From a virus, in the IMG/VR virus record IMGVR_UViG_3300021141_000001: DNA of 64,000 nucleotides; one strand, 5' to 3'. This document shows, piece after piece, positions 4,121 to 55,123 of this stretch. Under the pieces are notes generated by a model that saw nothing but the letters and a program-made list of their open reading frames with translations, made no database searches and was not told the origin of the DNA. The position numbers and the translations under genes are program-made. Numbering within the stretch: the stretch's first letter is position 1; each line of letters begins with the position of its first letter.

Positions 4121-4131
4121 AGAATATTATT

Positions 4132-18353: not shown

Positions 18354-21300
18354 ATGTGGACATACAATACTGATTATAGCAAATGGTACGCTAATGATGA
18401 CTCAATCTCAAAGAATGATTTTGATTTTTTAAAACAAGAGTTAAAATCTACTAGGTTTTATTCAAGATGTTTAAGTGGTGCTACATATTTACCTGTAAAT
18501 AGTCTTACTAATATTTATGATATACTAGGAAGTTATCAACAAAGAACATGGTATATTAGTACATTGGGTTCACAATATAGTGTTACATCTATTCCTTCTC
18601 AACATGCTTCACCTATAGATTCAAATACTTCAAATGATTATTATACAAAGTATTTATCTGAATATGGCTTAACATTAAAAAACTTATTTACGCCTTATAG
18701 ATTAATAAAAGACGCTTCAAAGAACTTTTACTATGTTGATGTTGCTACAACTGAACAGATTGATTTAACAACAGTAACAAAAGACTATTATATAGATGGT
18801 GTTAAATTATTAAATGGTCATAGAGTTTTAATTAAGGATCAAAAATTAAGTATTGTTTTACTAAACACTGCTGATCCTAATACTTATTTTACAGGACAAT
18901 ATAGCATTATACAAGATTTAGGTGGAACAATTGAGTACCAATATTACAGTGAGGAAAATGGTATTTATATTTATAATGATGGTATTTTAGTTAGAGATTC
19001 TGATTTAGATGATTATAGTAGATGTGTGAGATATAGTGTCTCTGTTAAACTGGGTAATACTAATACTGATAAACAATTTCATTTATCTAGACTACTAAGC
19101 GGTTATTTTCCTACAGTTTCATTAGCACAGCCTATTGAGTTTAAAGAAAAACATAACTGGATTTTAAGAAATCGAGTTGATTATAATAATTTATTTGAGA
19201 TAAACTACTATGATATAATTAAACATGGTACACAATCATATAATTATGAAGGTATTACTTATAGTGTTCCTGAAAGAACTTTATCTGTTGGTGAATTTGG
19301 TATTATTTTAAATACACAAGAAACTAAATCAAATATTATTAAAAATAAATATAAAGTTAATCTAAGAAGTATTACAGAGACCTCAAATTTTTATTGGATA
19401 TGTGGTGATGAAAATACACTTTTAAGAGTTAGAAAACATGATTTTTACATTGATAGAATTTTACTTGAAAATATTCCAACAACTTTACCAAATTTAATAA
19501 AAACTAATCTTTCTTCTGTTTCATTTTTTAATGATTTAGTAGGTGTTGTTGTTGGTGAATTGAATACTATACTTTACACCAAAAATGGTGGTTACAAATG
19601 GGAAAGAATTGAAGTTGCTGATTTTAGTGAATATAACTATAATAAAGCTTTGTATTCTACAGGTTCTAGTTTTTTTGTAGCTGGTGATAATGGTGTTTTA
19701 TTAGAATTTATTAATAGTATCGCCGGTTGGACAGCTTATAAAAGAAGAGTTTCTCAAATTGAAGATTCGGTTGATGAGTACATATTAGTTGAAAATATTA
19801 ATGATTTATACAAAACTACAATTTCTAGTTGGAATGTTAGTTATAACTATTATACACAATCTATACCAACAAGTAAAGAATTACTTTTCTTAGTTACGAA
19901 TAATAGTAAAATTATAGCTTATGATGTTAATAACTCATTCTCTCAAATAGGTACAGATTTTATTTACTTTGACTTTGGAAAAGAGTATAGTGATATTAGA
20001 AATATTACACAAAGACAAGGTACTAATAAATTTTATTTTACAGGTACTGATCCAGTTAGTGGTGATGATGGTATATTCTCATTTGATATAAGTAGTTTTA
20101 GTACATTAGGTACTGGTAGTTCTTATTCAAATACAACAGTTGGTGTTAATGCTACTTATGAATATGCTGCTTATCCAAATGAAATATTTGATTATAATGG
20201 TACAAATTTATTAATATGTGGTAATACTTCATTATTAGGAACTTCCACATATTCAGTGTTAAATTTTAACTCATTAGATTCTACATTTGAAGATAATTTA
20301 AAATCTAAGTTATTAGTTATTGATTATGATATTGCTTCTAAACTAAATTTCTTTACAGATGCTGGTGAATATAGATTACCAAATTCAGTTACTTTTAGCA
20401 ATACTACTTTGAATACTATAAATTCAAAAATTGGATTTAAGCCAATTCAACATCCATTAACGTCTACTAATAATGGTACTTATTCAGAAACAAACTGGAT
20501 TACATATTGGACAGATGCTGAAAAAACATTTGAGTATTATAATTTTACTCCAATGGATGAGTCAACTAAAGTTTTAATATCAACAACTTTTTCATATGAT
20601 ACTAATTCTACCTCTATATCATATAACAATACTCAAATTACAGCTTCTGCTTCATTAGTTTCTTTGTTAGCACCGGCTATTACAATGTTCAATTTAGTAA
20701 AAAGTGTATCAATTAAAAGTGCTGGTACTGGTTATTCAACCGCTTCAAATGTTGCCACAACTGGTGGTTCTGGCACAGGATTAAAATTAAATATAACAGC
20801 TTCTGGTGGTTTGATAACATCAGTTAAAGTAGCTGTTAAAGGTGAGGGCTATAACGTTGGTGATGTTGTTACTGTTACTGGTGGTACACTTGGTAAAATA
20901 AAAATTGACTCAATTGAGAATCATTCTCAAAGTAGATTTAATGGATATGGAATGCCTTCTATAACTGCTGTTCCTACTACTGGTGTTGCTGGTGCTTATA
21001 GAATATTTATTTATGATTATTTAATGATTTATAAAGTTGGATTAAGTTATCCAATTTCTGTTGGTGATATAATGAAATTTGAAAGTGGTATTGTTGATAC
21101 ACAATTTATTGTAAATAAAGTTATAACAATCGGTTCTTGGAAATTTATTTATATGTACACTGAATTTAATCAAAATATGATAACTGATTTATTGAATACA
21201 TTAAGTAATGTTACACTTACGAATTTAAATAAATACACAAATGTTGCTGAGTTAAAAGGTAGATTTAATGAACACCCTATTTCAAATGCTTATAAATTAG

Positions 21301-24300
21301 ATTATTTAGATTCCTATGGTGATGTAACAACTGCTACATCAAGTGTTTTTCAATTAAGTGCTAGATTTAATAATCTAACTTCTTATTATAATTTACAAAC
21401 ATCAGTTAATGTTGGTACTAATACTCAAATAGTGCCTTATGTTTCAAACTATCAGTTTTCAGGTGGTGTTTCTTACTCAATCTCAACTACTGGTACAACT
21501 TACAGTTTTGCTAATGGTGTTTCTGCTAGTAATACTCTTACGCCGGTTGCTGGTCTCCTTGGACTTCCTGGTTTTGGAGGTGATGGTTCACCTGCTATCT
21601 CTGCTAAATTACAACTTCCAATTGGTATAAATTATGATAATGTTGGAAATTTATATATTGCGGACAGTTCAAATAGAAGAATCAGAAAGGTTAGTGCTGG
21701 TGTTGGTGGAATAATAACTACAATTGCTGGTATTAATAATCCATTAGGTAATTATAGTGGTGATACTTCTCCGGCTATTGCTGCTGAACTTGAATCGGTT
21801 ATTGATGTTGTTGTAGATAATATGTACAATGTTTATATAGTTGGTAATGCTGCGTCTAGTATTCATAATGTTATTCGTAAAATTGATTTTGGAACAGGTA
21901 AAATAGATGTTTTTTCCGGAGGAGGAGGTGCTGGATATAACGGTGATGGTGGTCCTTGTTCTGACCCAAGTGTTCAGTTTAATAATCCAAAAGGATTACA
22001 TATCTCAAATTTTGGATTTGGAACCGCTAATCCAGTTTTATATGTTGCTGATTATGATAATCATGCTATAAGACAAATAGATTTAGTTACCAATATAATT
22101 ACAACAGTTGCTGGTGATGGAACTTCAGGTTGGAGTGGTGATGGTGGCTTAGCAACTTCTGCTCAATTAAAAAAACCTACTTCAATAACAACTGATTCTT
22201 TTGGTAATCTATATATAGCCGATACTGAAAATTATAGAGTTAGAAAAGTAGATATAGTAACAGGTGAGATATCAACTTTTGCTGGTAATGGTACTAGTGG
22301 TAATACAGGTGATGGTGGTTTAGCAAATATTGCTAGATTAGGTAGTGTTTCTGGAGTTACTGTTGATAATCTTAATAATCTTTATATAACATCTAATTCC
22401 GGTTCATCATATAGAATTCGTAGAGTTGATACAGCCGGTATAATATCAACATTTACAATAGGAACATCTGCTATATCTAAAGTAGTAGTATCTCCATTGG
22501 GTGATATTGTATTTTCGGTTCCAGGTAGTAGTATTGTTCAAAAACAAGCACCACCAGAAACCAAAGCAATTGTTTCTAGTATTCTAACATTTTTACCTAA
22601 TGAAAATGATACGGTTTTATTAAAACTAAATGGTATTTCTACTACATTTACATTTAAAACGAGTCCTTCGGCAGGAACAGATGTACTAATCGGTTCGAGT
22701 ATAAATGATTGTTTGAATAATCTTAAAACTAAGATACAGTCAATTGTCATATATTCAACATATCTTTCTGATGTTAGTGTTACTAGTAGTAATATAACTT
22801 TAACAATGGCAGATAATTATGGTTCTATACCTAATAATAATTCTAATTGGAATATATCTTTCTTTGACACTATAATAACTAATGAAGTTAATGCTATTTT
22901 ATCTGGATCAATGTCTGTTCCACCAATTAATGGCAATACTGCTGTAATATCTATTAATTCTATTAATACAACATATACATTTAAAAATATTGTTATTAAT
23001 CCAACAACTGATATTCAAATAGCTGGTACATTAACCGGCACATTAACAAATCTATTACTTGGTATAACTTCTTCATATCCAACTTATATATCACCAACTT
23101 CTTCTATTATTGGTGGTGATACAATTAATCTTGTGGTTAAACCAAATTATGGTTCTATTCCAAATATAAATTCTAATTGGGGATTAACTTATAGCCTAAC
23201 AGGTGGTGGTAACTATCAAACTAACTCATATAATATGGTTTACACCAATAGTTTCTTAAAATTTGGTTACTCTCCTACATATAATTTGTTAGATTATCTA
23301 ACAAACATAAATAATATCAATGATGTTAATCCTAAATTTTATGCTACTAAAGAGTATTTAGCTATGCCTCATTATGAAGGATTGCCTTTAGGTAGTTTAA
23401 CATTCTCTACTGTTTATATTGATTATAATGGCATGACTGCTTCACTCGACTTAAATTCACAAGGTAATAAAATTACATTTGGTTCAGATTTAAAATTAGA
23501 ATGGGAGAGTATATTTATTAATACTTTTGTTGATGTTATTATTCATGGTACATCTGATTATACAACTGAAAGACTGCTTGTAATGGACAAGTATTATGAC
23601 TCATTAAATGATTTTTATATAATTGAGTTTCATAAAAGATTAAACTTTAATTTGGGTGACTCTGTAATTGGCAATGGTGGTACTTTAGATATTATTTCCA
23701 GAAGACATTTATTTCAAATAAGCGATGATTTACAAGAATTAAATAATATACAAAGAACTAAAGGTAAATCAAACTCTTGGAAAGACCAAGGTCAGTATAC
23801 ATATGATACATATGAAAATGAATTGAATTTTAAAATTCCTACAGATTCGTATGCTAAGATATTACTTTCAGACACAGACACAATTCAGTCTTTATCTTCA
23901 ATAATTTATATTGATTATAAAAATGAATTGGCTATGAATATAACAAAATTGGCTAAAGAATATAATATAGCTATAACAAATACCTTAAATTATACAAACA
24001 AACTTTATATCTCATGTGCTGAAAAACATGACTTAATAACTGGCGAAGGTGTTGTTTTGGAATTTACAGGTGGTGTTGGATCGTCACAGGAATTAAATCC
24101 TCAATACTCTGGTTATCATGTTATTACAAAAATAAATGAATATGATTTTATTACTGATATTGATTATGGTCAATATCCAACTGTTGGTATTGATAGTGGT
24201 TATGTTAAATATACTAAACAAGATCCATTCTTAAATTATGAACCAGTTGATTTAATTGATTTAGGTGTTGATGGTAAAGGTAAAATGGCTTTAGAGTTAT

Positions 24301-25556
24301 CAACTGAAAGCGTAAAGATATCAAATAGTGTTTATAGTTTAATTGATGTTGATTTTGAAAAATATAGATTTAGATTAATTGATGGTTTGAATATAGAAAC
24401 TGTTAATTTACAATATTCTTGGTTATTAGAAGCTGAGTTATCTGGTGCTCTTATAGGATTAGACACAAATGGATTAGTTTGGTACAAAGGTACTTGGATA
24501 TTTGGTAGATGGTTTGGTGGTACTTGGCAGTCAGGTGTTTGGATGTCAGGTGACTGGTATGATGGTACTTGGAACTCTAATATAGTTACTGATAAAAAAT
24601 TAACAGCAGAGGTTGATACCAAAAGTGTTGATTTTGAACAATCATTCTGGTATACTGGTAGATGGTATGATGGTACTTGGAATGCGGGTATTTGGAATGG
24701 TGGTAGATGGTATGGCGGTACTTGGAATAATGGTATGTGGCATAAAGGTACTTGGAATGATGGTACTTGGAACAATGGTAATTTCGAGGGTGGTATTTGG
24801 GTATTAGGTACTTGGAATAGAGGAGTATTTAATTGTGATAATGAGCCAGCTTATTGGTTAGATGGTAAATGGTATGGTGGTGACTTTGAAAATGGTATGT
24901 GGTATAACGGATATTGGGAACAAAAAAATACATCATCTAGATTTGGTACAAAGTCATTTAACAGTAGAACAGCCAACTGGCAGGCAGGTACTTGGGTGAG
25001 TGGTTCTTTCTTCTCATTTATAAATACTAATGATCAAGGAGTATTAGATGTAAGTGATGTACATAAATATTCTATTTGGAAAACAGGTCAGTGGTTATCA
25101 GGTGAATGGTATGGTGGTATTGCTTATAACATGGACTTTAAAATAGGTACCTGGTATGGTGGTATATTAGAAGATATTGAAGTTATTGCTATTGATATAA
25201 TTAAAAATACATTTACATTAAATGGTATATTTAAATTTAATATTGGTGATACTATAAATATCATTGATAATCAAATTGATAATGCTAATTCAGTTTATGG
25301 TTCTAATTTGAATCCAGGTGTTTATAGAGTTTTATATCAAACAGAAGACACTACAAATAAGAGAACTATTCTTTATGTAGATTCTAATCTAAATGGACCA
25401 GCAGTCACATCAGTAACCGATACAGGACTAAGAGTCGTTTCTAAATTTAAGAACTTAAATTGGAAGTCGGGTATTTGGACTAATGGTATTTATGAAACAG
25501 GTCTTTGGGAAGGTGGTATTTGGTATAATGGTGTGTTCAGTGGAACATGGTCATAA
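18354..25556 (+). CDS. Giant virion structural protein (baseplate/fibre-like) with NHL repeats and C-terminal GxW repeats
   Basis: 2400 aa; IDGVKLLNGHRVLIKDQ..ENGIY fibre/baseplate motif; GDGGxATxAxL NHL repeats; GTWxxGxW arrays. Confidence 0.75.
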   Translation: MWTYNTDYSKWYANDDSISKNDFDFLKQELKSTRFYSRCLSGATYLPVNSLTNIYDILGSYQQRTWYISTLGSQYSVTSIPSQHASPIDSNTSNDYYTKYLSEYGLTLKNLFTPYRLIKDASKNFYYVDVATTEQIDLTTVTKDYYIDGVKLLNGHRVLIKDQKLSIVLLNTADPNTYFTGQYSIIQDLGGTIEYQYYSEENGIYIYNDGILVRDSDLDDYSRCVRYSVSVKLGNTNTDKQFHLSRLLSGYFPTVSLAQPIEFKEKHNWILRNRVDYNNLFEINYYDIIKHGTQSYNYEGITYSVPERTLSVGEFGIILNTQETKSNIIKNKYKVNLRSITETSNFYWICGDENTLLRVRKHDFYIDRILLENIPTTLPNLIKTNLSSVSFFNDLVGVVVGELNTILYTKNGGYKWERIEVADFSEYNYNKALYSTGSSFFVAGDNGVLLEFINSIAGWTAYKRRVSQIEDSVDEYILVENINDLYKTTISSWNVSYNYYTQSIPTSKELLFLVTNNSKIIAYDVNNSFSQIGTDFIYFDFGKEYSDIRNITQRQGTNKFYFTGTDPVSGDDGIFSFDISSFSTLGTGSSYSNTTVGVNATYEYAAYPNEIFDYNGTNLLICGNTSLLGTSTYSVLNFNSLDSTFEDNLKSKLLVIDYDIASKLNFFTDAGEYRLPNSVTFSNTTLNTINSKIGFKPIQHPLTSTNNGTYSETNWITYWTDAEKTFEYYNFTPMDESTKVLISTTFSYDTNSTSISYNNTQITASASLVSLLAPAITMFNLVKSVSIKSAGTGYSTASNVATTGGSGTGLKLNITASGGLITSVKVAVKGEGYNVGDVVTVTGGTLGKIKIDSIENHSQSRFNGYGMPSITAVPTTGVAGAYRIFIYDYLMIYKVGLSYPISVGDIMKFESGIVDTQFIVNKVITIGSWKFIYMYTEFNQNMITDLLNTLSNVTLTNLNKYTNVAELKGRFNEHPISNAYKLDYLDSYGDVTTATSSVFQLSARFNNLTSYYNLQTSVNVGTNTQIVPYVSNYQFSGGVSYSISTTGTTYSFANGVSASNTLTPVAGLLGLPGFGGDGSPAISAKLQLPIGINYDNVGNLYIADSSNRRIRKVSAGVGGIITTIAGINNPLGNYSGDTSPAIAAELESVIDVVVDNMYNVYIVGNAASSIHNVIRKIDFGTGKIDVFSGGGGAGYNGDGGPCSDPSVQFNNPKGLHISNFGFGTANPVLYVADYDNHAIRQIDLVTNIITTVAGDGTSGWSGDGGLATSAQLKKPTSITTDSFGNLYIADTENYRVRKVDIVTGEISTFAGNGTSGNTGDGGLANIARLGSVSGVTVDNLNNLYITSNSGSSYRIRRVDTAGIISTFTIGTSAISKVVVSPLGDIVFSVPGSSIVQKQAPPETKAIVSSILTFLPNENDTVLLKLNGISTTFTFKTSPSAGTDVLIGSSINDCLNNLKTKIQSIVIYSTYLSDVSVTSSNITLTMADNYGSIPNNNSNWNISFFDTIITNEVNAILSGSMSVPPINGNTAVISINSINTTYTFKNIVINPTTDIQIAGTLTGTLTNLLLGITSSYPTYISPTSSIIGGDTINLVVKPNYGSIPNINSNWGLTYSLTGGGNYQTNSYNMVYTNSFLKFGYSPTYNLLDYLTNINNINDVNPKFYATKEYLAMPHYEGLPLGSLTFSTVYIDYNGMTASLDLNSQGNKITFGSDLKLEWESIFINTFVDVIIHGTSDYTTERLLVMDKYYDSLNDFYIIEFHKRLNFNLGDSVIGNGGTLDIISRRHLFQISDDLQELNNIQRTKGKSNSWKDQGQYTYDTYENELNFKIPTDSYAKILLSDTDTIQSLSSIIYIDYKNELAMNITKLAKEYNIAITNTLNYTNKLYISCAEKHDLITGEGVVLEFTGGVGSSQELNPQYSGYHVITKINEYDFITDIDYGQYPTVGIDSGYVKYTKQDPFLNYEPVDLIDLGVDGKGKMALELSTESVKISNSVYSLIDVDFEKYRFRLIDGLNIETVNLQYSWLLEAELSGALIGLDTNGLVWYKGTWIFGRWFGGTWQSGVWMSGDWYDGTWNSNIVTDKKLTAEVDTKSVDFEQSFWYTGRWYDGTWNAGIWNGGRWYGGTWNNGMWHKGTWNDGTWNNGNFEGGIWVLGTWNRGVFNCDNEPAYWLDGKWYGGDFENGMWYNGYWEQKNTSSRFGTKSFNSRTANWQAGTWVSGSFFSFINTNDQGVLDVSDVHKYSIWKTGQWLSGEWYGGIAYNMDFKIGTWYGGILEDIEVIAIDIIKNTFTLNGIFKFNIGDTINIIDNQIDNANSVYGSNLNPGVYRVLYQTEDTTNKRTILYVDSNLNGPAVTSVTDTGLRVVSKFKNLNWKSGIWTNGIYETGLWEGGIWYNGVFSGTWS
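24478..25161 (+). repeat. Degenerate 15-bp coding repeat (GxW pentapeptide)
   Basis: Recurring GGTACTTGG/TGGTATGGT encoding W-x-x-G-x. Confidence 0.7.
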
Positions 25557-37090: not shown

Positions 37091-37423
37091 ATGAAAACAC
37101 CAAATTTATTTCCCGTAGCTATGAAAATTGCTGCTCAAACTATTGGACAAGATTTAGTCAGTGTTCAACCAATGGCTGGACCAGGTGGAATGACTAAAGA
37201 AGAAAGAGAAAGAATTGAAGCCGAGATTAAACAAAAGAATCGTGATGGTAAAATCGATTCATTAATTGAAGGATCAGAATATAAAGAAGAAAAATTAGAA
37301 GAACATCCTGATTATAAACCAGGTAGTGGTTGTCAATTATTTTATATGGATTATACTTACAATTCTCCAACTCACAAAAAAACAAGAAGAAGTAAAAAGA
37401 AAAAGAAAGATGGGAGTATTTAA
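37091..37423 (+). CDS. Small protein: major capsid protein (gp23 Gol-region) fragment interrupted by the tag
   Basis: LFPVAMKIAAQTIGQDLVSVQPMAGPGG ... NRDGKIDSLIEG ... QLFYMDYTY. Confidence 0.7.
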   Translation: MKTPNLFPVAMKIAAQTIGQDLVSVQPMAGPGGMTKEERERIEAEIKQKNRDGKIDSLIEGSEYKEEKLEEHPDYKPGSGCQLFYMDYTYNSPTHKKTRRSKKKKKDGSI

Positions 37424-37595
37424 GAGTCCAGGAGTTTTTGTTAAAGAAGTAGATATATCTATTGTTAGACCAACTTTTTCCAAAAGATATTCAAGAAGAA
37501 TAAAAATAGGTAAAATATTTGATATAGATGTTCCTAATATTATTATAACTTCTACTCCAAAAGGAGGACCCTCAAACTTTCCACAAATCTGGTGA
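37410..37595 (+). CDS. Small protein: tail sheath N-terminal fragment plus tag
   Basis: MGVFKSPGVFVKEVDIS ... SRRIKIGKIFD; likely start is the ATG at 37410. Confidence 0.65.
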   Translation: MGVFKSPGVFVKEVDISIVRPTFSKRYSRRIKIGKIFDIDVPNIIITSTPKGGPSNFPQIW

Positions 37596-43738: not shown

Positions 43739-46700
43739 TTATCCTAAAGCAGTACCAACTTTACCAGCTGTTGCCATTTCAACAAATATAACACCACCCG
43801 AAGATTGACCAACACCAGCACCAACACCACTAACAACTGTATTAGAGTTTTGAGTTTGAATACTATCTAAACCAACTGATATATTATCTATAAAGCTAAA
43901 GTTAGAATTAGTATAATCAATAAAAGGTGATATTCCTTGATATGGAATTTGAATACCTTTATTAATATTATCTTCTGTAAAATATTGAAAGAATGGAATC
44001 ATATCCACTTCATAAAAATGTAAATTATCAATTAAATATTCTACAGTTGTTAAAAATAAAGGACTATATCCATAAAAATGCATGGCTAGATTTCTTTTAT
44101 TATAAAAATATTCTGATTTTTTAGTTTTTGATGTTAGTAAATGATTTACATTATCATATACAGGTAAATATGTTGCGGTTGTTAATATTGATGATTCAAT
44201 TCCACCACTAATAGTAAGTTTTCTATTAACAAAATTTAAGTTATTAAAGTGTATAGGTGGAACCTGTACATTATTATTAGGTCCAAAATATTTATATGTA
44301 TAAGGTGCGTGAGTAACTTTAGAACTTCCTTTCCAACTAAATTCGGTATAATCTGATATAATATTAGAAAATGTTACTAAATCAAACTCAACTTTTGTAT
44401 ATCTGAATCTTTGAATCTCCTCATATGTTTTGTTTAAAATATCGTTTTCACTAAATGACGTTACATCTAATATACCACCACTAGCAATTGCTTTTACTAA
44501 CAATTCTTCTCCTGTTATTGAGTCAATACCTGTATATGTTGGTCTAGAAAATGTTAAAGATGAAACATCCCATCTAGAAAATGTCCAACCATCTTTTATA
44601 AATTCATTTTCTCCAGGTATATTGATATATACTTCAGCACTTGCTGCTTGTGATGCCGTAGATGAAAGAAAAGATCCGCCAAATTCTGTTTCAAATTTAC
44701 CAGCATCTCCTATAAAATCACTAAATATTTTATATTTTGTTCCTAGTTTATAACTTCTTATTGTTGTTGAAAAACTATCTCTAAAAGTTGAATCACTTTC
44801 TAATATATCATTTGTTGTATAACCATATAAGTTATTTTCTGAATAAGTTTTTCTTGATAAGGAATTTAATAAAGCTTGAGGTTTTCCTATGTTACTAGCA
44901 TATGAATTATCAAATAATACATCCATCCATGAGTTATAAACAAATACCGCATCAGATTCTAATGAGTTATTTGATGTTATTTTAGATATATTGTTTGACT
45001 TGAATTTAACTTTTTGTAAAACACCTCTAGACATTTCAATTGTTACTGAACCACCTTCTAAAACAGAATCAGATCCCCAATCAATGTCGGTTTTTATTTG
45101 GTAATTATTTACAACTTCCGTAACATAATGTTCACCATCATATTGAGGATTTATTGTTTTATCTGTTTTATCTATTGTTATTAAATCACCAACAGTAAGA
45201 CCGTGTGGTTGTGAGAAAGTTAATCCAACACTACCAGCCTGAAATATCGTATCAACAAAATTAGGTATAGTGTATTCAGATGAACTAAAATGACCACCAT
45301 CAAAAACACCATCAATCCAGTTTGTATCATACATTTCAGTAATCAATGGATATCCTTTAAATAAACCATAATTCCAAATTCCCTTAAAATATCCATTTAA
45401 GAAACCACCAGATAACCAAACATTTTTTGTTACATAAATTCTGTGATGATCTGAGTCTTTTTTAACTCTTCTTATTGGGAAGTTATTATCAAATTCAACA
45501 ATTATACTATTATCAGTTTTATTTATGATTGTATAATAACTTTTAAGTACTTTTCTATCCTCATTTATATCAATTGCGATGATATTTCCAATTGAAACAT
45601 TATCACCAATATTAAAATTAGAAACTGATGAAGTTGGACCTGTAATCTGTACTCTCCATCTTTTATTTCTATTATATCCAAAGAACTGATTAACATTATG
45701 AAACTCATACATTCCTTCATCAACTCTCCAACCACTATTCCAAACTCCATTTTCCCAAATACCTGCTTTGAATTTACCATTACCAATTTTTGAATAAATT
45801 TGACTAATTCCGGGATTTATAAGAGATGCCGTTGCGTTTACACTATTACCATTTCCAACAAGGGCCGTATATGTTGCTCCTGTTAAACCAATAATAGGTG
45901 ATGAGTATGTTAGACCAGTACTCATTATATATTGTCTATTGTTACCAGAGTAGTAACCACCATCAACTGTTATATTTGATAAATATATAGATGAGTATGT
46001 TGTACCTGATGCTGATGCTCCAGCAAATCCACCAACAAAAATCAAATATTGATTTCCTCTAACTCCATAAAATTGTTGAGAAATAGAAGATGTCAGTGAT
46101 GTTGATCCAGATGGAGAAACACTTTGAGTTAATGTTGCTAGTAATACAGATCCACTCGGTGGTGTATAACTATTAGACACTAAATTGGTCCAATCAGCAG
46201 GAGATTGAGATGGTGGAGAATATGATGTATATATCTTTAATGGAAAATCACTTTGATTTTGATAAGAAAATGAAAAGTTAAAATATGAATAAGGTACAAA
46301 TTTAACTAAAGCATTATTTAATCTAAATCCAATATTTGATGTCTTACTGCCATTTGGACCACCAACTGGAAAATATCCAGTATTTAACTGTGTTGCGTTA
46401 GATGCGGAACCTGTTACTCTATCATACCAATGATATTGATCAGAACTTTTATTATAATACCAACCAAGTGAATTTGATACAATTGGTTGATTCTCACTAG
46501 CTGTTAGTCTATAATAAGAAAATCCTTGAATTTTAAAATCTATCTCATTTACGACAAAATCAGTTATGCCCTCATTTGCCACACCTTGACTACTAAATGT
46601 ACCATTTGCTTTATAAACAACATGACTGGTTGATGTTATAGTTGATGTTGGTGTTGAGTAGTGAAAAAAACTTTGAGTAGCATTAAGTGTTGGTGCTACA

Positions 46701-47041
46701 TTTGAAGCACTCATTCCACTATAGTATTTTAACTCATCTGATTGATTTGTCGGCCAAGGTGGAGATACTGAAAAAGATCCGTGTACCGCATATAAATTAA
46801 CAGTGTGTGTTATAAATTGATAAGTTTTTTTAGATTCAAAAGTATATGGTGTTCCAACATGATTAAGTGTATAAATATTATTAACAGCAGAAGATCCAAT
46901 ACCCACCACATTAATTTGTAGTCTACCAGGTGATGGTGCCGCATTATATATCCAATGTACAGTTGTACTAGGAGCAGTTGCTAGTGATACTGCGAGTGAC
47001 ATACCACTTGTCATTGATGAACCAAATTTACCTGATGGCAT
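43739..47041 (-). CDS. Large virion structural protein with GxW/GxF repeats
   Basis: 1100 aa, S/T/N-rich; GIWENGVWNSGW; ends AGKVGTALG. Confidence 0.65.
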   Translation of the reverse strand: MPSGKFGSSMTSGMSLAVSLATAPSTTVHWIYNAAPSPGRLQINVVGIGSSAVNNIYTLNHVGTPYTFESKKTYQFITHTVNLYAVHGSFSVSPPWPTNQSDELKYYSGMSASNVAPTLNATQSFFHYSTPTSTITSTSHVVYKANGTFSSQGVANEGITDFVVNEIDFKIQGFSYYRLTASENQPIVSNSLGWYYNKSSDQYHWYDRVTGSASNATQLNTGYFPVGGPNGSKTSNIGFRLNNALVKFVPYSYFNFSFSYQNQSDFPLKIYTSYSPPSQSPADWTNLVSNSYTPPSGSVLLATLTQSVSPSGSTSLTSSISQQFYGVRGNQYLIFVGGFAGASASGTTYSSIYLSNITVDGGYYSGNNRQYIMSTGLTYSSPIIGLTGATYTALVGNGNSVNATASLINPGISQIYSKIGNGKFKAGIWENGVWNSGWRVDEGMYEFHNVNQFFGYNRNKRWRVQITGPTSSVSNFNIGDNVSIGNIIAIDINEDRKVLKSYYTIINKTDNSIIVEFDNNFPIRRVKKDSDHHRIYVTKNVWLSGGFLNGYFKGIWNYGLFKGYPLITEMYDTNWIDGVFDGGHFSSSEYTIPNFVDTIFQAGSVGLTFSQPHGLTVGDLITIDKTDKTINPQYDGEHYVTEVVNNYQIKTDIDWGSDSVLEGGSVTIEMSRGVLQKVKFKSNNISKITSNNSLESDAVFVYNSWMDVLFDNSYASNIGKPQALLNSLSRKTYSENNLYGYTTNDILESDSTFRDSFSTTIRSYKLGTKYKIFSDFIGDAGKFETEFGGSFLSSTASQAASAEVYINIPGENEFIKDGWTFSRWDVSSLTFSRPTYTGIDSITGEELLVKAIASGGILDVTSFSENDILNKTYEEIQRFRYTKVEFDLVTFSNIISDYTEFSWKGSSKVTHAPYTYKYFGPNNNVQVPPIHFNNLNFVNRKLTISGGIESSILTTATYLPVYDNVNHLLTSKTKKSEYFYNKRNLAMHFYGYSPLFLTTVEYLIDNLHFYEVDMIPFFQYFTEDNINKGIQIPYQGISPFIDYTNSNFSFIDNISVGLDSIQTQNSNTVVSGVGAGVGQSSGGVIFVEMATAGKVGTALG

Positions 47042-47090: not shown

Positions 47091-50000
47091 TTATGGTGTA
47101 AGAACAATCCCGACCTTGCCAGCAACAGCAAATGGATCAGTTACACTTGAATACCAACCGTTTGTTGATATTGTAGATGCTGTTGCTGACACAATAGTTC
47201 TTTCTTGGTCGGTATTTTGTAAAAATATATTCCATATGTGACAAGAAGATGTTCCGCTCCAAGACATACCTCTGTTTAATATTTGTAAAGTATAATCATC
47301 TGTCACATAACCATTAAATTCAAATGATGAACCATACCAGTTACCATTTCTCCAAAGACCATTTTCCCAGAAAACATTAAAAGCATTCATATATTGAGAT
47401 GTTCCATTTTCCCATATCATACCAGTAGCTGTTCCTATAATAAAGTTTCCATTTTTCCAGTGTGAGATATAAAAATCACTTCCATCTAAATCACCATTTT
47501 CCCAATAACAAGTATTATCATTAAAATTAAAAGATGCTGTTGCTGATCCATTTCTTTTTACATAAGGATTGAATGAACTATTTTTAAATTTACCTCTCTC
47601 AAATACTCCGTTTAACCAAACAGAACTACTCATCTCGCCGCTAGAATGACTAAAAGTTCCGGATACCCAAAGACCATTTTTAAATTTAGCACTTCTAGGT
47701 GGTTTATTTACACCTTCTAAACTCATAGCCATTACTTGTTTTGTGAAAAACTTTTGGTCTTTAACAAATTTATCTTTAATATTTGTAAAAATACCATCTC
47801 TCCATTTACCCCAATATGATTGACTATAAGAATCAACAAATATATTAGCGTTTCCACTTGTTAATCCTGAAACTGGATTTCCACCACTTCCTTGAAACTC
47901 ACCATATAAAAATACACCATTATTCCATACTCTACCTTTAAATACACCACCATTAAATTCACCTGTGTACCAAGTTGAATTCGTTAAACCATTAGCATTT
48001 CCAAATTCACCACCATTAAATGTTCCTTTTTCCCAACCATAATCTAATTGTGATGTACTTTCACTTTGTGTCCAGCCATAAGCTGATGTAAACTTACCAC
48101 CATTAAATGTTCCGTTTTTCCATTTACCATTAGTTATGAATTGACCACCATTAAATATACCTTTTTGCCATGTTGCTGAGTGTGTAGCGTTTTGTAATAT
48201 ATCAGAGCCAAAAACACCATTAACAAAAATACCATTTAACCAGTTTAAGTTTTGATTTAAATTTTGATAATAACTTGTATCAATAGAATATAATGTAGCA
48301 TTTTCAACAATAGCATAACTCACAGTACCATTATATAAATGTGTATCTAAAGTAGAAACTTGATTACTACCGATAATACCTTTGTTAAAGACACCATCAT
48401 ACCATTTTGAGTAGTTAAAATTACCATTAGAGAATGTACCAGACTCCCAATCACTCTTATAAAAATCACCATCAATGAAATTACCACTTTGCCAAGAGTT
48501 TCTATTATTTGGCAAAGTTCCTTTTCTATAATAGGAATTTATATTTTCAGAATAATAATAAGGACTCACAACACTTGATGTTCCATTAAATGTTCTTGAG
48601 TTATAAAACCAACCATTTAAGAAATCTCCTTCAATCCATCTTGAGTCTCTGACAACACCATTACTAAATGTACCACCATTCCATATTGAGTTTTGTATAA
48701 TTCCTGAATTCCATACATCATCACCTTGAACAAAGAATGAGTTAATATATGTAGCATTTGATAAAATATTTGAGTTGTTAGAAAATATAGCGTCGGAAAT
48801 AACTAAATTTCTAGCTTTTGCTAAATTTGTAAGATCTTTATCTAAATAGTTATATTCTAAATTTTGAATTAATGAACCAGATAAATAAGTTCTTCTCATT
48901 AATCCTGATTTAATATTTGATTTACTTATTTTAAGTTTTTTTAAATGACCATATCTATTCTCCGCCTTATTAGTGTAGTAATAACCATTTGATGCTGATA
49001 AACTAATTATTTGACTAGCAGTTCCAATTTCTCGTAGTTTATAAACACCATTTGTATTTGAAATAACTTTATAAGCATCAGGAATTCTAGAAACAGTTCC
49101 CCAGTTAAAATCCACAGAGTCTAAAAATACAACATCTCCAACATTTATTAATTTAGATTCGGGGTAATTAGAATCATAAGATGTAGTTGCTGTAATATAA
49201 TTTGAAGAATCAATTGATAAGTTATAATTTTCACCTAATAATGTTTGTACAGTTATATTATTATCATTATTTGATTCAATATGAGAGCCACTATTCCAAT
49301 CAGAGTTTTCAATTAAACCACTATCAAAATCAGCATCTACTATATAAGCACTTGATACATCTATAATATTATTTAATGGAGTAAGACTTGAAGAGTTATA
49401 GTTAAAATCTAAATTTTCTGTTGTTAAAGATCCTGTTTTATCATATCTACTTGACCATATATCAATAGAATAATATTTACTATTAGGATTTGTACCAGCA
49501 ATCTCGGTATAATATTTTGGTCCAGTGTATGGAGGAAATATAGCAGTAGATGTGTAATACTTATAAGAGTTATCAGCAGGTGTTGATAAGAAAGCAGAAT
49601 ATTCATATCCTTTTTTACCAACTGTTGTTACTCCAAAGTTTTCTTCTGTGTATTCTGTCCAAGAACCTATCTTGAATTTTTTATCAAAAAAGTTTATAAT
49701 ATCTTTAGATAGATTATTAATACCTAAACCTTTAATATAAAATTTATCACCTGTTCTTAATCTATCATATCCACTTTTATCAATATAAAACTTATAAACT
49801 TTCTGAACAACGTCATTAATAGAACTGAATGTAACAGAAGTTATAGCAGAAAACTCAGATGCTGCTAATTCATCATAGGCATATATTTTAATAATATTAT
49901 CACTATTATAAAATGAATCTTTCAATACTGAATTATTAAAATATGAGTTTATAGATTTACTTTTTTCAAACTTTGAATTATTTGCCTTTGTGTTTTTTAA

Positions 50001-51401
50001 TTCAGAATTTTCTAAATATGAATTATTGAACTCACAATCATTAAAAAATGCTTGTTTAATTTCATTTGTATAAGGTGATTCAATTCCTAATATCTCATCT
50101 TCGACTATTGAATAAGTAGCACTTGATTGAGTACCAAATGTAGTTGTATAAAATGAACCATTTGTTATAGTTGATGTTTCTATTATAGAGTTAGCAACAA
50201 AATTATAACCTCTACCTGCGTTATTAGGTGAGTTAATTTTTTGATAAGGCAATCCATAATTATCAAATGAAGAAAAATAACTTTCACTTGAAGTGTATAA
50301 TGAATTCATTGTTCCTTTTTTCCAAATAGTATTAATTAAGGTTCCAACATTCCAAACTGACTTATCACCATGCCATTTAATTCTTTTATCATATTGACCA
50401 TATAGACCACAGTTCCATTCACCTCTGAAGTTACCATCTCTAAAGTTATTTTTAGTTAAATATGGTTTAAAGTAAGTAACATCAACTTCCCAAGAAGATT
50501 GTGTTGGACCAACTACCCATTTATAAACATATCCTTCTTTGAATTCTCTTCCATTATAAGTGAAATCAGCATTCATTATTTTTACTCTATTTACATTTGA
50601 ATATGTAGGAGAAAGAGCATATGAATAAGAACCACTATTAATAAAGTTTGTTGTTATATTAGTCCAACTAGCTGTAGAACTTCTTACATAAAATCCAGGC
50701 GCACCTGAAACACCATTATTCAATCCCCAGTTTTGAGTAGTTGAATAATTACTATCAATAAATGCTATATTATTTTGATACCATTCAAATTTATGATTTA
50801 TTTTACCTTCTCTTGTAGTAATCGCTCTATTGGCATGTAAAAATTCAGACGTATCTCTAATGTAATAAACTTTTATTAATTGGTCATCTGTAGCTGTTGA
50901 ATATGGTGTAACTCCTGTATAGTCTATATCTAAAACAACTTGGCATTTATCTATGTGTAGAATTTTATAACCGTCTCTACCTTTTTTATATTTATTTTTT
51001 TCAATTAATAAATCACTATCATAAGCACCATTTATTATAAATACTCTATCTCCAGCTTTTAATTCAGAATTAACTTCAGTATAAAAAAGAGTTTTTATAG
51101 AACCTTTTATTTCATATGGCTCTACCCAATTTAATAACTTAGAACTAAATGTTTTATTTGAATTTGAAACAAGACCTATTAGTGGATCATATCCAACTAG
51201 TTTTATATCCTTTCCTAAGTTTTGTAACTCAGCTCTTGTTATAAGTTGAGGTTTTGTTGATATCGTATTAGCAACCGCCGAAATACTTGCGTTTGTTAAA
51301 TTTGGCACACTACTAACCGGTTCTTTGTATTGAACCTCCATAATACTAGGAATCTTAAAGATTTTTTTTCTAATATTTATATCAACTGAAAATGTCGCCA
51401 T
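47091..51401 (-). CDS. Large virion structural protein with GxF/GxW pentapeptide repeats
   Basis: 1436 aa; WxxGTFNGG arrays; ends AGKVGIVLTP; TATATATTA at 51424-51432. Confidence 0.7.
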   Translation of the reverse strand: MATFSVDINIRKKIFKIPSIMEVQYKEPVSSVPNLTNASISAVANTISTKPQLITRAELQNLGKDIKLVGYDPLIGLVSNSNKTFSSKLLNWVEPYEIKGSIKTLFYTEVNSELKAGDRVFIINGAYDSDLLIEKNKYKKGRDGYKILHIDKCQVVLDIDYTGVTPYSTATDDQLIKVYYIRDTSEFLHANRAITTREGKINHKFEWYQNNIAFIDSNYSTTQNWGLNNGVSGAPGFYVRSSTASWTNITTNFINSGSYSYALSPTYSNVNRVKIMNADFTYNGREFKEGYVYKWVVGPTQSSWEVDVTYFKPYLTKNNFRDGNFRGEWNCGLYGQYDKRIKWHGDKSVWNVGTLINTIWKKGTMNSLYTSSESYFSSFDNYGLPYQKINSPNNAGRGYNFVANSIIETSTITNGSFYTTTFGTQSSATYSIVEDEILGIESPYTNEIKQAFFNDCEFNNSYLENSELKNTKANNSKFEKSKSINSYFNNSVLKDSFYNSDNIIKIYAYDELAASEFSAITSVTFSSINDVVQKVYKFYIDKSGYDRLRTGDKFYIKGLGINNLSKDIINFFDKKFKIGSWTEYTEENFGVTTVGKKGYEYSAFLSTPADNSYKYYTSTAIFPPYTGPKYYTEIAGTNPNSKYYSIDIWSSRYDKTGSLTTENLDFNYNSSSLTPLNNIIDVSSAYIVDADFDSGLIENSDWNSGSHIESNNDNNITVQTLLGENYNLSIDSSNYITATTSYDSNYPESKLINVGDVVFLDSVDFNWGTVSRIPDAYKVISNTNGVYKLREIGTASQIISLSASNGYYYTNKAENRYGHLKKLKISKSNIKSGLMRRTYLSGSLIQNLEYNYLDKDLTNLAKARNLVISDAIFSNNSNILSNATYINSFFVQGDDVWNSGIIQNSIWNGGTFSNGVVRDSRWIEGDFLNGWFYNSRTFNGTSSVVSPYYYSENINSYYRKGTLPNNRNSWQSGNFIDGDFYKSDWESGTFSNGNFNYSKWYDGVFNKGIIGSNQVSTLDTHLYNGTVSYAIVENATLYSIDTSYYQNLNQNLNWLNGIFVNGVFGSDILQNATHSATWQKGIFNGGQFITNGKWKNGTFNGGKFTSAYGWTQSESTSQLDYGWEKGTFNGGEFGNANGLTNSTWYTGEFNGGVFKGRVWNNGVFLYGEFQGSGGNPVSGLTSGNANIFVDSYSQSYWGKWRDGIFTNIKDKFVKDQKFFTKQVMAMSLEGVNKPPRSAKFKNGLWVSGTFSHSSGEMSSSVWLNGVFERGKFKNSSFNPYVKRNGSATASFNFNDNTCYWENGDLDGSDFYISHWKNGNFIIGTATGMIWENGTSQYMNAFNVFWENGLWRNGNWYGSSFEFNGYVTDDYTLQILNRGMSWSGTSSCHIWNIFLQNTDQERTIVSATASTISTNGWYSSVTDPFAVAGKVGIVLTP

Positions 51402-51487: not shown

Positions 51488-52222
51488 ATGAATAAGAAAA
51501 AAGTATTGATTTTTACTGGAGCAGGAGTTTCAGCTGAAAGTGGCGTTGCTACTTTTAGAACTGGTGATGATGGGCTTTGGTATAATCATAAAGTAGAAGA
51601 TGTTGCCACACCTAGTGGGTGGCGTAGAGATAGAGAAAAAGTTCTTAATTTCTACAATATGCGTCGTGCTCAAATGAAAGATGTTGAGCCAAATTTGGCG
51701 CATAAAATAATTGCTGAATTAGAAAATGATTATGATGTTACTGTTGTAACTCAAAATGTTGATGATTTACACGAAAGAGCAGGCTCAACTAATATTATTC
51801 ATCTACATGGTGAGTTAACAAAAGCTAGAGGCTGTATGTATGATCATAAAACATCACCATTAGACACAGTTGTTGATGTGGGATATAATCCAATTAATAT
51901 TGGAGATAAATGTCCAACAACTGGCTCTCAATTAAGACCTCATATTGTTTGGTTTGGTGAAGATTTAGATCCTGATTTTGTTGATATGGCTACTAAAGCG
52001 GCTAAAGAATGTGATGTATGTATTGTTGTTGGAACTTCAATGAAAGTTTCACCTGCTAATACAATTCCATTTTTGACTAGAGAAACTACTAAGATTTACT
52101 ATGTAGATTTATCAGACCTTGATTTCTATGTACCAGAATACAGAAATGACTTATTTACTCATTACCAAGAATTGGCATCAACTGGTATGGAAAAAGTTAA
52201 AAACGATTTAAAAAATATTTAA
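51488..52222 (+). CDS. cobB: NAD-dependent deacylase, Sir2/CobB family
   Basis: TGAGVSAESG..TFR, TQNVDDLHERAG, HLHG, RPHIVWFGE, VGTS..V.PA. Confidence 0.95.
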   Translation: MNKKKVLIFTGAGVSAESGVATFRTGDDGLWYNHKVEDVATPSGWRRDREKVLNFYNMRRAQMKDVEPNLAHKIIAELENDYDVTVVTQNVDDLHERAGSTNIIHLHGELTKARGCMYDHKTSPLDTVVDVGYNPINIGDKCPTTGSQLRPHIVWFGEDLDPDFVDMATKAAKECDVCIVVGTSMKVSPANTIPFLTRETTKIYYVDLSDLDFYVPEYRNDLFTHYQELASTGMEKVKNDLKNI

Positions 52223-52223
52223 T

Positions 52224-52454
52224 ATGAAAGAAGAATATTACAAAGACATATTTGGTGGTAAAAAATATGGCGACTATATGGTTTATGGTTTAGATAAATC
52301 TAAAGAATCTACATATAGTGATTACACTGATTTACTTGACCAAATGAACGCAACATCCTTCACTGAAGAATCTGAAGAACAAAAAGCTATTCGTGAAGCA
52401 AAAGAAAAGGCTGAGAAAAGAAATAATAAGATTGACCAACTTTTAGGAGAATAA
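52224..52454 (+). CDS. Hypothetical protein with C-terminal tag
   Basis: Ends KRNNKIDQLLGE. Confidence 0.65.
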   Translation: MKEEYYKDIFGGKKYGDYMVYGLDKSKESTYSDYTDLLDQMNATSFTEESEEQKAIREAKEKAEKRNNKIDQLLGE

Positions 52455-52455
52455 T

Positions 52456-53019
52456 ATGTCACAAATATCAATTGTTGATTGGATTACGGCTTTATTAATA
52501 GTCGTGCCTTTATTTGCTTTACTTATATCAATTCCAAGTTTTATCTCTATGTATAAACTTGGATTCAAAGCTTATGTAGAACAATTGATACTTTTGAAAA
52601 CAATGTTGAAAAAGATATCATCTGGATATAAAATTACTCAAAATCAAGTTTATAATTACAGCGGTGTTAGTTATAATGGACCAAAATCAGTAACACAAGT
52701 TGAAACTAATCATTTCTTTCCAATAGTTATTAATAAAGATAATCTCTTAGTTCTTAATAAGAAAGAAGGTCCATTTAATACTTTACATATTCAGTATTGT
52801 AAACATGAAAATGATAACTGGGATAATAATATGGTTGAGATAAAAACCAGCAATTGTTTATTTACTCAAATTCTAAATGACAGATTTCAAAAAAAAGTTG
52901 ATAATCTTATGAAAGAGTCTGTTCAACTTGATGGAGTTGAAAATCTAAATGAACTATTAAATAGTGAAATAACTTCTATTAAAAGAGAAGATAAACTTAA
53001 TGCTTTATTAAATGATTAA
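52456..53019 (+). CDS. Membrane-anchored protein with C-terminal tag
   Basis: N-terminal TM helix; ends KREDKLNALLND. Confidence 0.65.
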   Translation: MSQISIVDWITALLIVVPLFALLISIPSFISMYKLGFKAYVEQLILLKTMLKKISSGYKITQNQVYNYSGVSYNGPKSVTQVETNHFFPIVINKDNLLVLNKKEGPFNTLHIQYCKHENDNWDNNMVEIKTSNCLFTQILNDRFQKKVDNLMKESVQLDGVENLNELLNSEITSIKREDKLNALLND

Positions 53020-53176
53020 AAGAGACATTGTAATAGTTGACCATATCAGTATGATAAGTGCTACTACGGTAGACCCATCCATATTGGAAAAACTTAATAT
53101 TCGTGTTAAGAATATTCGTAAGTATAGAGGTCGTATTGAAAAACGAAAAGAAAAAATAAAAAGAATTTATGAATAA
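53012..53176 (+). CDS. Small protein (54 aa): DnaB/T7 gp4 helicase Walker-B-like fragment plus tag
   Basis: Manual ORF MIKRDIVIVDHISMIS...KRKEKIKRIYE, overlapping both neighbours by 8 nt. Confidence 0.55.
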   Translation: MIKRDIVIVDHISMISATTVDPSILEKLNIRVKNIRKYRGRIEKRKEKIKRIYE

Positions 53177-53357
53177 AGAAACTCTTGATATATTTGGTCA
53201 ATATCTAAATGGTAATAAACAAATTATGATGTTGAAGGCTAGGCAAACTGGTAAGTCAAGTGCCACCGCTTCTTTAATGGCTTGGAAACATCTTCATAGT
53301 AAATATGAAAGAGCAAGAACGAGAAAAGAAACCATAAAACGGCTTTTTAATATATAA
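53169..53357 (+). CDS. Small protein: terminase large subunit Walker A fragment plus tag
   Basis: IMMLKARQTGKSSATA; ends TRKETIKRLFNI. Confidence 0.7.
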   Translation: MNKETLDIFGQYLNGNKQIMMLKARQTGKSSATASLMAWKHLHSKYERARTRKETIKRLFNI

Positions 53358-53381: not shown

Positions 53382-53939
53382 ATGAATTTACAAGAATTAC
53401 TTAATAAATGGAATATCAAATGTGATGTTAATACATTACTTTCAATGTGGAATGAATCTCATAGATCTTATCATACCTTAAATCACTTAAATGATGTGAT
53501 TGACCAAATCAACGAAAGTAAGTCAAAATACTCTGATAAAGAATATGAGAAGTTGATGTTAACAGCTCTTTTTCACGATTGTGTTTATGACCCAATGAAA
53601 AGTGATAATGAAGAAAAGTCAGCTGACTTCTTTATGGAATGCTGTTCAGATAAATCTAATTCAGACGTTTTAGAAGTAAAACAAATGATTTTAGATACAA
53701 AGACTCACCAAGCTACAACAAACCTTTCAGAGTCTTTTAATTACTATGATATGAGTATTGTAGAAAGAGATTTCGATCAATTATTAGAATGGGAAAACGG
53801 AATTCACGAAGAGTTCAAAGCTTATGGTGAAGCTTACAAAGAAGGTAGATTGAAATTCTTAGAATCAATCTTAGATAAATATCCTCATAACACAGAAAAC
53901 TTACTTAAACTAGTTGAGTGGGTTAAAACTAACTACTAA
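53382..53939 (+). CDS. HD-superfamily phosphohydrolase
   Basis: RSYHTLNHL, ALFHDCVYDP, NEEKSA, D..I. Confidence 0.85.
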   Translation: MNLQELLNKWNIKCDVNTLLSMWNESHRSYHTLNHLNDVIDQINESKSKYSDKEYEKLMLTALFHDCVYDPMKSDNEEKSADFFMECCSDKSNSDVLEVKQMILDTKTHQATTNLSESFNYYDMSIVERDFDQLLEWENGIHEEFKAYGEAYKEGRLKFLESILDKYPHNTENLLKLVEWVKTNY

Positions 53940-54420: not shown

Positions 54421-54448
54421 AAAAAAACCCACTCTAGAGTGGGTTTTT
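54421..54448. terminator. Bidirectional terminator
   Basis: AAAAAAACCCACTC-ta-GAGTGGGTTTTT. Confidence 0.8.
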
Positions 54449-54454
54449 AATTTA

Positions 54455-55123
54455 TTAAATATTTGGATTAGGTTTGTTAGGTCTTTGATTAGGATTTACT
54501 ACAGCACCTTTATTTGTCTTAGGTTCAGCAAAATATAAAGCAAAATTTGTTTCTTTATCTTCAGTACTTAATAACATATTAGGATATTTTGATTTGATAG
54601 TATCAATTAATTTATTTCCTAACTTATTTACAAATTTTACTACTTCTGGGTTTTTCTGCATATCGTATAAGTTAGCAATTTTACCAGATTCTCCAAAAAT
54701 AGCATCTTTTATATGTGACCAATTTTTAGAAATATCCTGTTGATAAGTTCCAGGGTATTTTTCATAATCACCAGGTTTCTTTTCATCCATCATCTTTTTA
54801 ATTATCTCTTTATTTTCAGGTGCTGTTATAAATTGATAAGCAACAGCATAAACAGGCAGAAACAAGCCAATTTGTTCAACATCTGAAAATTGATGAATTT
54901 CTACAGTACCACCTTTACCATTCAAATATTTTGAATCTTTTGTACCAACTAAAGAATCACCACCTCTATATTTTGATTTTTCGCTATTTTCTTTTATTTC
55001 AACTTCATACCCTTCACTTTTTACAAGAGAGTATAATTGTTTAGCTATAGATTTTAATTCCAGAAAATCTTCATTAATAGATTCTGAGTCTGAGAAGTTT
55101 TCAAATAATTTAAGATGTTTCAT
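54455..55123 (-). CDS. Hypothetical protein with capsid-targeting-like N-terminus
   Basis: MKHLKLFENF; TATATATTA at 55145-55153. Confidence 0.7.
   Translation of the reverse strand: MKHLKLFENFSDSESINEDFLELKSIAKQLYSLVKSEGYEVEIKENSEKSKYRGGDSLVGTKDSKYLNGKGGTVEIHQFSDVEQIGLFLPVYAVAYQFITAPENKEIIKKMMDEKKPGDYEKYPGTYQQDISKNWSHIKDAIFGESGKIANLYDMQKNPEVVKFVNKLGNKLIDTIKSKYPNMLLSTEDKETNFALYFAEPKTNKGAVVNPNQRPNKPNPNI

Follow-up and report, generated by a model that had tools for sequence, protein, structure and literature searches.

The four small consecutive open reading frames (ORFs A to D) which follow a Sir2-family (sirtuin) gene in this phage DNA appear to fill a hot spot for accessory genes, and each of them encodes a variable head that is joined to a short C-terminal peptide (tag) recurring throughout the lineage. 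The head of ORF C resembles the Walker B strand of a DnaB-type helicase, while that of ORF D resembles the Walker A segment of a large terminase. In our best explanation, in which as a whole we place middling confidence, C and D would be non-catalytic mimics of these two core proteins that act by binding. Tagged mini-proteins of the C and D type point to an undescribed class of labeled mimics, as far as can be judged from their sequences.

Setting and turnover of the locus

The DNA analyzed here, referred to as the window, is 64 kb long and has a G+C content of 29%. Over the locus under study, its identity to the genomes of two uncultured phages, LR745206.1 and LR756502.1 (634,780 and 642,428 bp), is about 74%. 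The source is a huge AT-rich phage of roughly half a megabase, kin to LR745206 and LR756502. A homolog of family D (P0025) sits on a contig of 816,658 bp, and the lineage may include genomes which are larger than the records of 0.63-0.64 Mb.

Between positions 51488 and 54390 every gene lies on the + strand, namely the Sir2 gene, the four small ORFs, the gene of an HD hydrolase and one further ORF (Table 1). The first-pass annotation had listed four tightly coupled ORFs, including one starting at 53012, and all four were found at the stated positions, with lengths of 76, 187, 54 and 62 aa. Their coupling was borne out as well: the junctions Sir2/A and A/B both read TAAtATG with a gap of 1 nt, and the junctions B/C (ATGATTAA) and C/D (ATGAATAA) overlap by 8 nt each. 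The Sir2 gene, the four small genes and the HD hydrolase gene probably share one + strand transcription unit, the end of which is probably formed by a terminator-like hairpin. The accessory unit is flanked by very large ORFs of 2400, 1100 and 1436 aa (18354-25556, +; 43739-47041, -; 47091-51401, -), which contain repetitive stretches rich in Asn, Gly, Trp and Phe and are probably fiber-like structural proteins.

Table 1. Coordinates of the tagged-ORF locus and of further small ORFs discussed in the text. Positions refer to the window unless a contig of the 476-kb relative is named.
Feature	Position	Strand	Length	Description
Sir2-family gene	51488..52222	+	244 aa	Opens the + strand unit; PF02146, E = 2.8e-47; phrog_2162, E = 1.1e-48
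ORF A	52224..52454	+	76 aa	Variable Tyr/Gly/Asp-rich head, conserved charged helix; tag codons 52419-52445
ORF B	52456..53019	+	187 aa	Putative membrane helix at about 52489-52545, alpha+beta domain, C-terminal helix; tag 52984-53010
ORF C	53012..53176	+	54 aa	DnaB-like Walker B strand at residues 2-20 (53015-53071), very basic helix; tag 53144-53170
ORF D	53169..53357	+	62 aa	Terminase-like segment at residues 7-38 (53187-53282), long helix; tag 53322-53348
P-loop-like KARQTGKS of ORF D	53235-53258	+		Within the terminase-like segment
HD-type phosphohydrolase gene	53382..53939	+	185 aa	phrog_19425, E = 2.3e-18; conserved downstream anchor of the cassette
Bidirectional terminator-like hairpin	54423..54448	.		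11-bp stem (4 GC pairs); both strands have T runs
Mini-ORF	37410-37595	+	61 aa	Sheath-like N-terminus, internal tag RRIKIGKIF, IIITSTPKG
Tagged ORF of the 476-kb relative	L033:13347-13544		66 aa	phrog_138 (major head protein family), E = 0.0014
Tagged ORF of the 476-kb relative	L045:17298-17474		59 aa	Tail-fiber-like families, E = 1e-4
ORF with bL12-like segment	60827-61291	+	154 aa	Residues 6-40 match PF00542 (C-terminal domain of ribosomal bL12, first half only) with E = 8e-7, which passes the curated cut-off

For a comparison across related phages, which the earlier annotation had proposed as a check for cassette turnover, 16 syntenic loci were collected from viral contigs of 45-483 kb, with the HD protein (66-97% identical across these contigs) as the anchor, and the interval between Sir2 and HD was read in each of them. 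The turnover is evident, with ORFs being gained and lost independently among the 16 loci. The full set of A, B, C and D is present in four of them and ORF A in most, B is absent from L016, and C is absent from L005, L006 and L009. Some loci hold extra inserts (a 198-aa ORF, ORFs of 112-138 aa, or a tagged ORF of 38-44 aa), the loci L011 to L014 contain A and a 44-aa ORF only, and L015 contains a single ORF of 433 aa. In L013 and L014 the place of Sir2 is occupied by an ORF of 289 aa (3711-4580) whose 5′ part differs, which may be an insertion or fusion at the border of the cassette. Wherever C occurs in the syntenic loci, D lies directly 3′ of it, and of the five further loci with a short-form C, four keep the 8-nt overlap between the two. 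Taken together, these comparisons mark this interval as a hot spot of small accessory genes.

Median pairwise dN/dS ratios of 0.44 for A, 0.34 for B, 0.47 for C and 0.43 for D, compared with 0.07 for the HD gene, mark A to D as real genes, whose coding sequences evolve fast yet under constraint. In large protein collections 346 homolog clusters were found for D and 174 for C (both at 90% identity), and 43 for B (at 50%). In freshwater metagenomes both C and D are abundant, as these 174 and 346 clusters illustrate, and they are therefore more than a peculiarity of one genome. The motifs on which the first-pass annotation had built, DIVIVDHISMI in C and LKARQTGKS in D, are kept in more than 100 homolog clusters each.

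In ORF A only the last approximately 30 residues are conserved; they form a charged helix ending in the tag, and A is essentially little more than helix plus tag. ORF B had been proposed to carry a membrane anchor, and a membrane helix is indeed plausible there, as an N-terminal hydrophobic stretch reaches a Kyte-Doolittle value of 2.6 over residues 12-30 and the AF2 model places a helix at residues 6-35. The same model (pLDDT 85, pTM 0.70) comprises this membrane helix, a sheet of five strands against which helices pack, and the helix of the tag. No fold could be assigned to B by Foldseek (best E = 0.07) or VIA-align (best Z = 5.3), and a search for parent proteins of A and B in the proteome of a relative yielded none above shuffled controls.

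The recurrent C-terminal tag

All four ORFs had been described as ending in a common tag, and their terminal sequences do read R-x-x-[KT]-[IL]-x-x-[IL]-[LFY], with one or two more residues behind it (A: RNNKIDQLL plus two; B: REDKLNALL plus two; C: RKEKIKRIY plus one; D: RKETIKRLF plus two). Across the lineage the tag takes the form R-[DE]-x-K-[IL]-x-x-[IL]-[LFY]. Counted with one strict pattern, seven of the 80 ORFs of the window carry it at their C-terminus, with A to D being four of these seven, whereas shuffling gives an expectation of 0.05 (at most 1, in 200 shuffles).

A relative of 476,236 bp was put together from an IMG/VR contig, and its proteome of 627 ORFs allowed the tag to be followed at the scale of a larger genome. 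There, 57 of 104 matches to the pattern end no more than five residues from the C-terminus, whereas shuffled proteins gave 0-4. The tag is carried by about 9% of the ORFs of this relative, which is about one in eleven. The profile of the 51 ORFs that carry it there (median length about 110 aa) consists of R (50 of 51), D or E (35 of 51), any residue, K (41 of 51), I or L, N, K or D, any residue, I, L or V, and L or F; it is usually followed by one K or N, and the mean net charge is +1.5. Within family B, the arginine of the tag, R177, is the sole invariant residue among 33 homologs of 21-90% identity. AF2 models both B and D with the tag at the end of a long C-terminal helix, and the tag is itself helical and amphipathic.

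Ten of the larger tagged proteins of the relative were compared with Pfam; nine gave no match and one a thioredoxin-like match below the family cut-off. The idea that the tag might be a signal for translational coupling was dismissed, as 67% of tagged ORFs are coupled to the next gene versus 50%, a slight excess. The literature searched contained no description of this tag or of any such C-terminal motif of huge phages, nor of motif fragments that bear a tag. Huge phages contain hundreds of small genes without known function, and if the tag is an address label, identifying its reader would reveal a shared mode of action for dozens of such dark genes in each genome. A second recurrent tag, the N-terminal peptide M-[KR]-x-[IL]-K-x-[FY]-x-x-F, begins many otherwise unrelated proteins, and its carriers in the window include the ORF at 54455-55123 (-) and those at 35013, 35975, 36734, 25585, 12265, 40746 and 58057.

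Helicase and terminase motifs in ORFs C and D

When a profile of C without its tag was compared with the relative's 627 ORFs, the highest-ranking non-self match was a 444-aa protein, according to Pfam a DnaB-type helicase (DnaB_C, E = 2.9e-21), and the match falls exactly on the Walker B strand of this helicase (residues 313-331). With a profile made from the first 26 residues of about 110 C homologs, this match reached 13.7 bits (E = 0.0012), and the best score among 12,540 shuffled proteins (20 shuffled proteomes) was 7.8 bits. BLASTP of the window's C against the helicase aligned residues 2-20 with 10 of 19 identities and 16 of 19 positives, the Asp included (E = 2e-4, as a single comparison), and hhalign gave an E-value of 0.003. 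The Walker B strand is kept in the helicases of five relatives, and the head of C is best conserved at this very motif (D5 98%, I6 98%, D10 99%, and H or Y at position 11). The earlier reading of DIVIVDHISMI as motif H2 of DnaB and gp4 is thereby supported by the top match of a whole proteome, at a score well above that of the shuffles.

Neither Pfam nor PHROG linked C to helicases, so that the likeness is to the lineage's own helicase and not to a generic profile. Look-alikes of C in the ESM Atlas were uninformative, and an 87-aa variant of C from L007 yielded no BLASTP match to DnaB. A relationship of C to TerL was rejected, as only the tag could be aligned, to an internal helix of TerL, and this alignment was not significant. 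C lacks a Walker A motif, an arginine finger and an N-terminal domain, and what remains of it is the basic helix and the tag.

For ORF D, the large terminase family phrog_2 was matched by D on its own with an E-value of 0.004 (residues 15-60 on profile positions 276-323 of 807) and by seven of ten D orthologs with E-values of 0.002-0.004 (best 0.0017) over about 46 residues, and three other terminase families were matched by single members of family D. The true TerL of the lineage, a protein of 710-714 aa (714 in the relative), is encoded elsewhere in the genome, and hhalign aligned residues 7-38 of D with its Walker A region (residues 97-127 of the relative's TerL; E = 0.0028). In the ESM Atlas the nearest named clusters to D were short TerL_ATPase, GpA_ATPase and Terminase_6N fragments with scores of 0.93-0.95, a first-match score of 0.95 being attained also by approximately one in 100 shuffled proteins. 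A profile of D without its tag scored 6.4 bits against the TerL of the relative (rank 3), compared with up to 11.5 bits in shuffled proteomes. The terminase-type Walker A segment which the first-pass annotation had seen in D is thus supported by PHROG, hhalign and Atlas look-alikes, which are concordant and each weak, and an actual descent of D from a terminase gene appears to us somewhat more probable than not.

Within the RQTGKS motif of 120 D homologs, R, Q and G are conserved to 99-100%, and the Lys is present in 88%, with Arg in 11% (13 homologs) and Ala in 2% (two homologs); among the D proteins of syntenic loci, the P-loop variants GRS, GAS and GSI were seen. A P-loop NTPase proper would not tolerate such a replacement of the Lys. 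The AF2 model of D is a helical hairpin (helix-turn-helix) and does not support an arrangement of strand, P-loop and helix, which is not decisive as the N-terminal half is modeled with low confidence. Pfam gave nothing above noise for any of the ORFs A to D, and sequence searches of the PDB with profiles and motif segments of C and D returned nothing relevant. D lacks a Walker B motif, motif III and a nuclease domain, and past the P-loop it contains only one helix and the tag. We read D as a terminase-type Walker A segment which would have been retained for a role other than ATP hydrolysis. The earlier statement that neither C nor D can be an active ATPase stands, as with 54 and 62 aa both hold incomplete catalytic sets. 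A 251-aa P-loop protein at 17275-18030 (-), with the Walker A motif GPAGTSKT and conserved in relatives, also shows a secondary weak match to a terminase profile (E = 1e-5) via its P-loop region.

Further very small ORFs, which are marked by a basic form of the tag ending in F or Y (RK.KIK.[IL][FY]), exhibit likenesses to core proteins as well. The IIITSTPKG stretch of the mini-ORF at 37410-37595 is identical in eight of nine positions to motif III of TerL (IIITSTPNG), and in the 476-kb relative the pattern of this motif occurs solely in TerL and in the counterpart of the mini-ORF. Pieces resembling a major head protein, tail fibers and the ribosomal protein bL12 were seen in three other ORFs (Table 1). 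Genome-wide phmmer and BLAST screens of small against large proteins were too noisy for a general fragment rule. By these likenesses, C and D so appear to belong to a wider set of very small tagged ORFs with pieces of core proteins, to which C adds a replication protein and D another motif of the terminase.

Proposed mode of action, alternatives and known systems

In the proposed mechanism each of the proteins A to D would consist of a variable head and the shared amphipathic C-terminal helix, and this tag helix would most likely dock every tagged protein onto one common partner. B would be the membrane-anchored member and A a helix with tag; a tethering of tag complexes to the membrane through B, as put forward in the first-pass annotation, would be purely speculative. 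The heads of C and D would copy or mimic, in short form and without catalysis, the ATPase strands that are most conserved in two core machines of the phage, for C the Walker B strand of its DnaB-type helicase and for D the Walker A segment of the large terminase. Because their ATPase sets are incomplete, C and D would act through binding and not through hydrolysis. The likeliest mode is that of a microprotein or decoy, which would engage the normal contacts of these motifs and bring or hold them at the partner of the tag. Against mimicry weigh the score of D versus TerL, which is not above that of shuffles, the blank Pfam and PDB searches for C and D, and the fact that weak matches between small and large proteins are common in this AT-rich proteome.

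These counterweights are also what favors a chance resemblance, according to which C and D would be ordinary orphan small proteins that by accident contain a hydrophobic strand ending in Asp and a Gly-Lys-Ser turn, and the tag alone would be meaningful; the matches are, moreover, short (19 and about 31 residues), and AF2 gives D two helices. Nevertheless, the predictions had been made beforehand and were met by blind searches, in which the DnaB helicase came out on top of 627 proteins exactly at Walker B and terminase families were the top PHROG and Atlas matches for D. The motif segments are also the best conserved parts of both heads, and a third small tagged ORF contains the 8/9 copy of TerL motif III. 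We regard chance as a serious competitor with a minority share of the probability. A decay of one larger gene, of which A to D would be remnants or frameshifted pieces, could account for successive overlapping ORFs in successive +1 frames and for two rare database entries that fuse B with C or extend C. This origin, which the first-pass annotation had named as a way in which its proposal could fail, is highly improbable, and a single frameshifted gene can be ruled out: all four have conserved starts, stops and tags of their own and are gained and lost independently in the 16 loci, the dN/dS ratios are below 0.5, and a search for longer forms of C turned up two short-contig oddities alone. Besides, Walker B precedes Walker A in the order of the genes, and the two motifs come from different parents.

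Alternatively, C and D could together form a split mini P-loop unit which binds phosphate, nucleotide or nucleic acid without turnover. Synthetic peptides of the type strand-P-loop-helix are reported to bind nucleotides and single-stranded DNA, D always follows C with a conserved 8-nt overlap in loci with both, and the tails of both proteins are very basic. D is, however, present without C in L005, L006 and L009, about 13% of D homologs have Arg or Ala where the P-loop Lys would be, AF2 predicts no strand in D, and the motifs trace to two different parent ATPases, so that we consider a split unit quite improbable. Only slightly better placed, and still improbable, is a function as anti-defense decoys, in which the fragments would show immutable core motifs to sensors and the tag would sequester or dispose of the bound sensor. 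The parent proteins of these fragments, namely terminase, RecA-fold helicase and capsid, are all watched by bacterial pattern-recognition receptors (PMC13581612), and extra phage proteins resembling the terminase ATPase do exist, such as vs.8 of T4 (PMC13601566). However, Avs2 and Avs3 recognize the folded ATPase domain of the terminase and require it together with bound ATP (PMC13601566), and in at least 12 of the 14 families of Avs the entire core of the target is enveloped (PMC13581612). With recognition at the level of the fold, a stretch of 20-35 residues cannot reproduce the target, and the Avs-decoy version that had originally been suggested is unlikely. As Lit and CapRel read short motifs of the capsid (as cited in PMC13581612), and as terminase, helicase and capsid are all watched, a decoy against motif-reading sensors stays an option of low probability.

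Labeled mimics that act by binding are our preferred reading. In its most far-reaching form, the lineage would encode address-tagged peptide mimics that show immutable motif strands of its own core machines (Walker A and motif III of the terminase, Walker B of the helicase, pieces of capsid and sheath), and the shared C-terminal helix would deliver them to one hub, where they either blunt host sensors reading such motifs or regulate how the parent machines are assembled. We consider this form unlikely, though it would, if true, represent a new class of phage counter-defense or self-regulation. Should the motif copies be mimics, phages would offer in them a first case of natural microproteins modeled on, or aimed at, conserved catalytic strands that bacterial immune receptors also watch.

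Among known systems, the microProteins of plants and animals come close in concept: they are parts of larger proteins, have lost the activity of these and act by binding, with a whole interaction domain being kept. C and D resemble them in their apparent derivation from larger proteins (DnaB for C and, more weakly, TerL for D) and in the loss of activity, but here the motif strand alone is kept and a shared address tag has been added. A description of the microprotein concept for phages was not found in the literature searched. The DnaB helicase itself has a RecA-fold core with Walker A, Walker B and arginine finger, of which C keeps the Walker B strand only. With the large terminase (phrog_2; Terminase_6N/TerL_ATPase) D has in common a strand, the loop R-Q-x-G-K-[ST] and the start of the next helix, and it differs by its size, by the missing Walker B, motif III and nuclease, by a Lys that is not invariant and by the tag at its end. 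Like D, vs.8 of T4 is an additional phage protein derived from the terminase ATPase, yet it is reported to comprise the whole domain with both Walker motifs and to trigger Avs2, whereas the corresponding part of D amounts to about 30 residues (PMC13601566). Short stretches of core proteins can be readable by cellular partners, as is known from the Gol peptide of the T4 capsid, which is read by Lit, and from the short capsid motifs likewise read by CapRel (cited in PMC13581612). In these cited cases the triggers are parts of the full protein and activate defense, while here separate genes are involved.

For the tag, the closest likeness is found in the clamp-binding tails of T4 gp43, gp55 and gp33, in which a short interchangeable C-terminal peptide, hydrophobic and acidic, docks unrelated proteins on one hub (PMC2988020). 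The tag differs from these tails in being a basic/hydrophobic helix with a near-invariant Arg, and in its presence on about 9% of the relative's ORFs. A clamp of the gp45 type (PF02916) was not found in the 476-kb relative, and the match to a family B polymerase there, a 508-aa ORF at 84859-86385, does not end in the tag. This ORF is followed by minus-strand genes, so that the polymerase of the relative appears split or interrupted. In membrane-targeting helices of the MinD/FtsA type, a basic amphipathic helix at the C-terminus provides the sole contact of the protein with the membrane; the tag forms an amphipathic helix, its position 2 is acidic in 35 of 51 cases, and it is also present on B, which already has a putative membrane helix. 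We class the proteins encoded here with two known kinds, small phage accessory proteins and short docking motifs.
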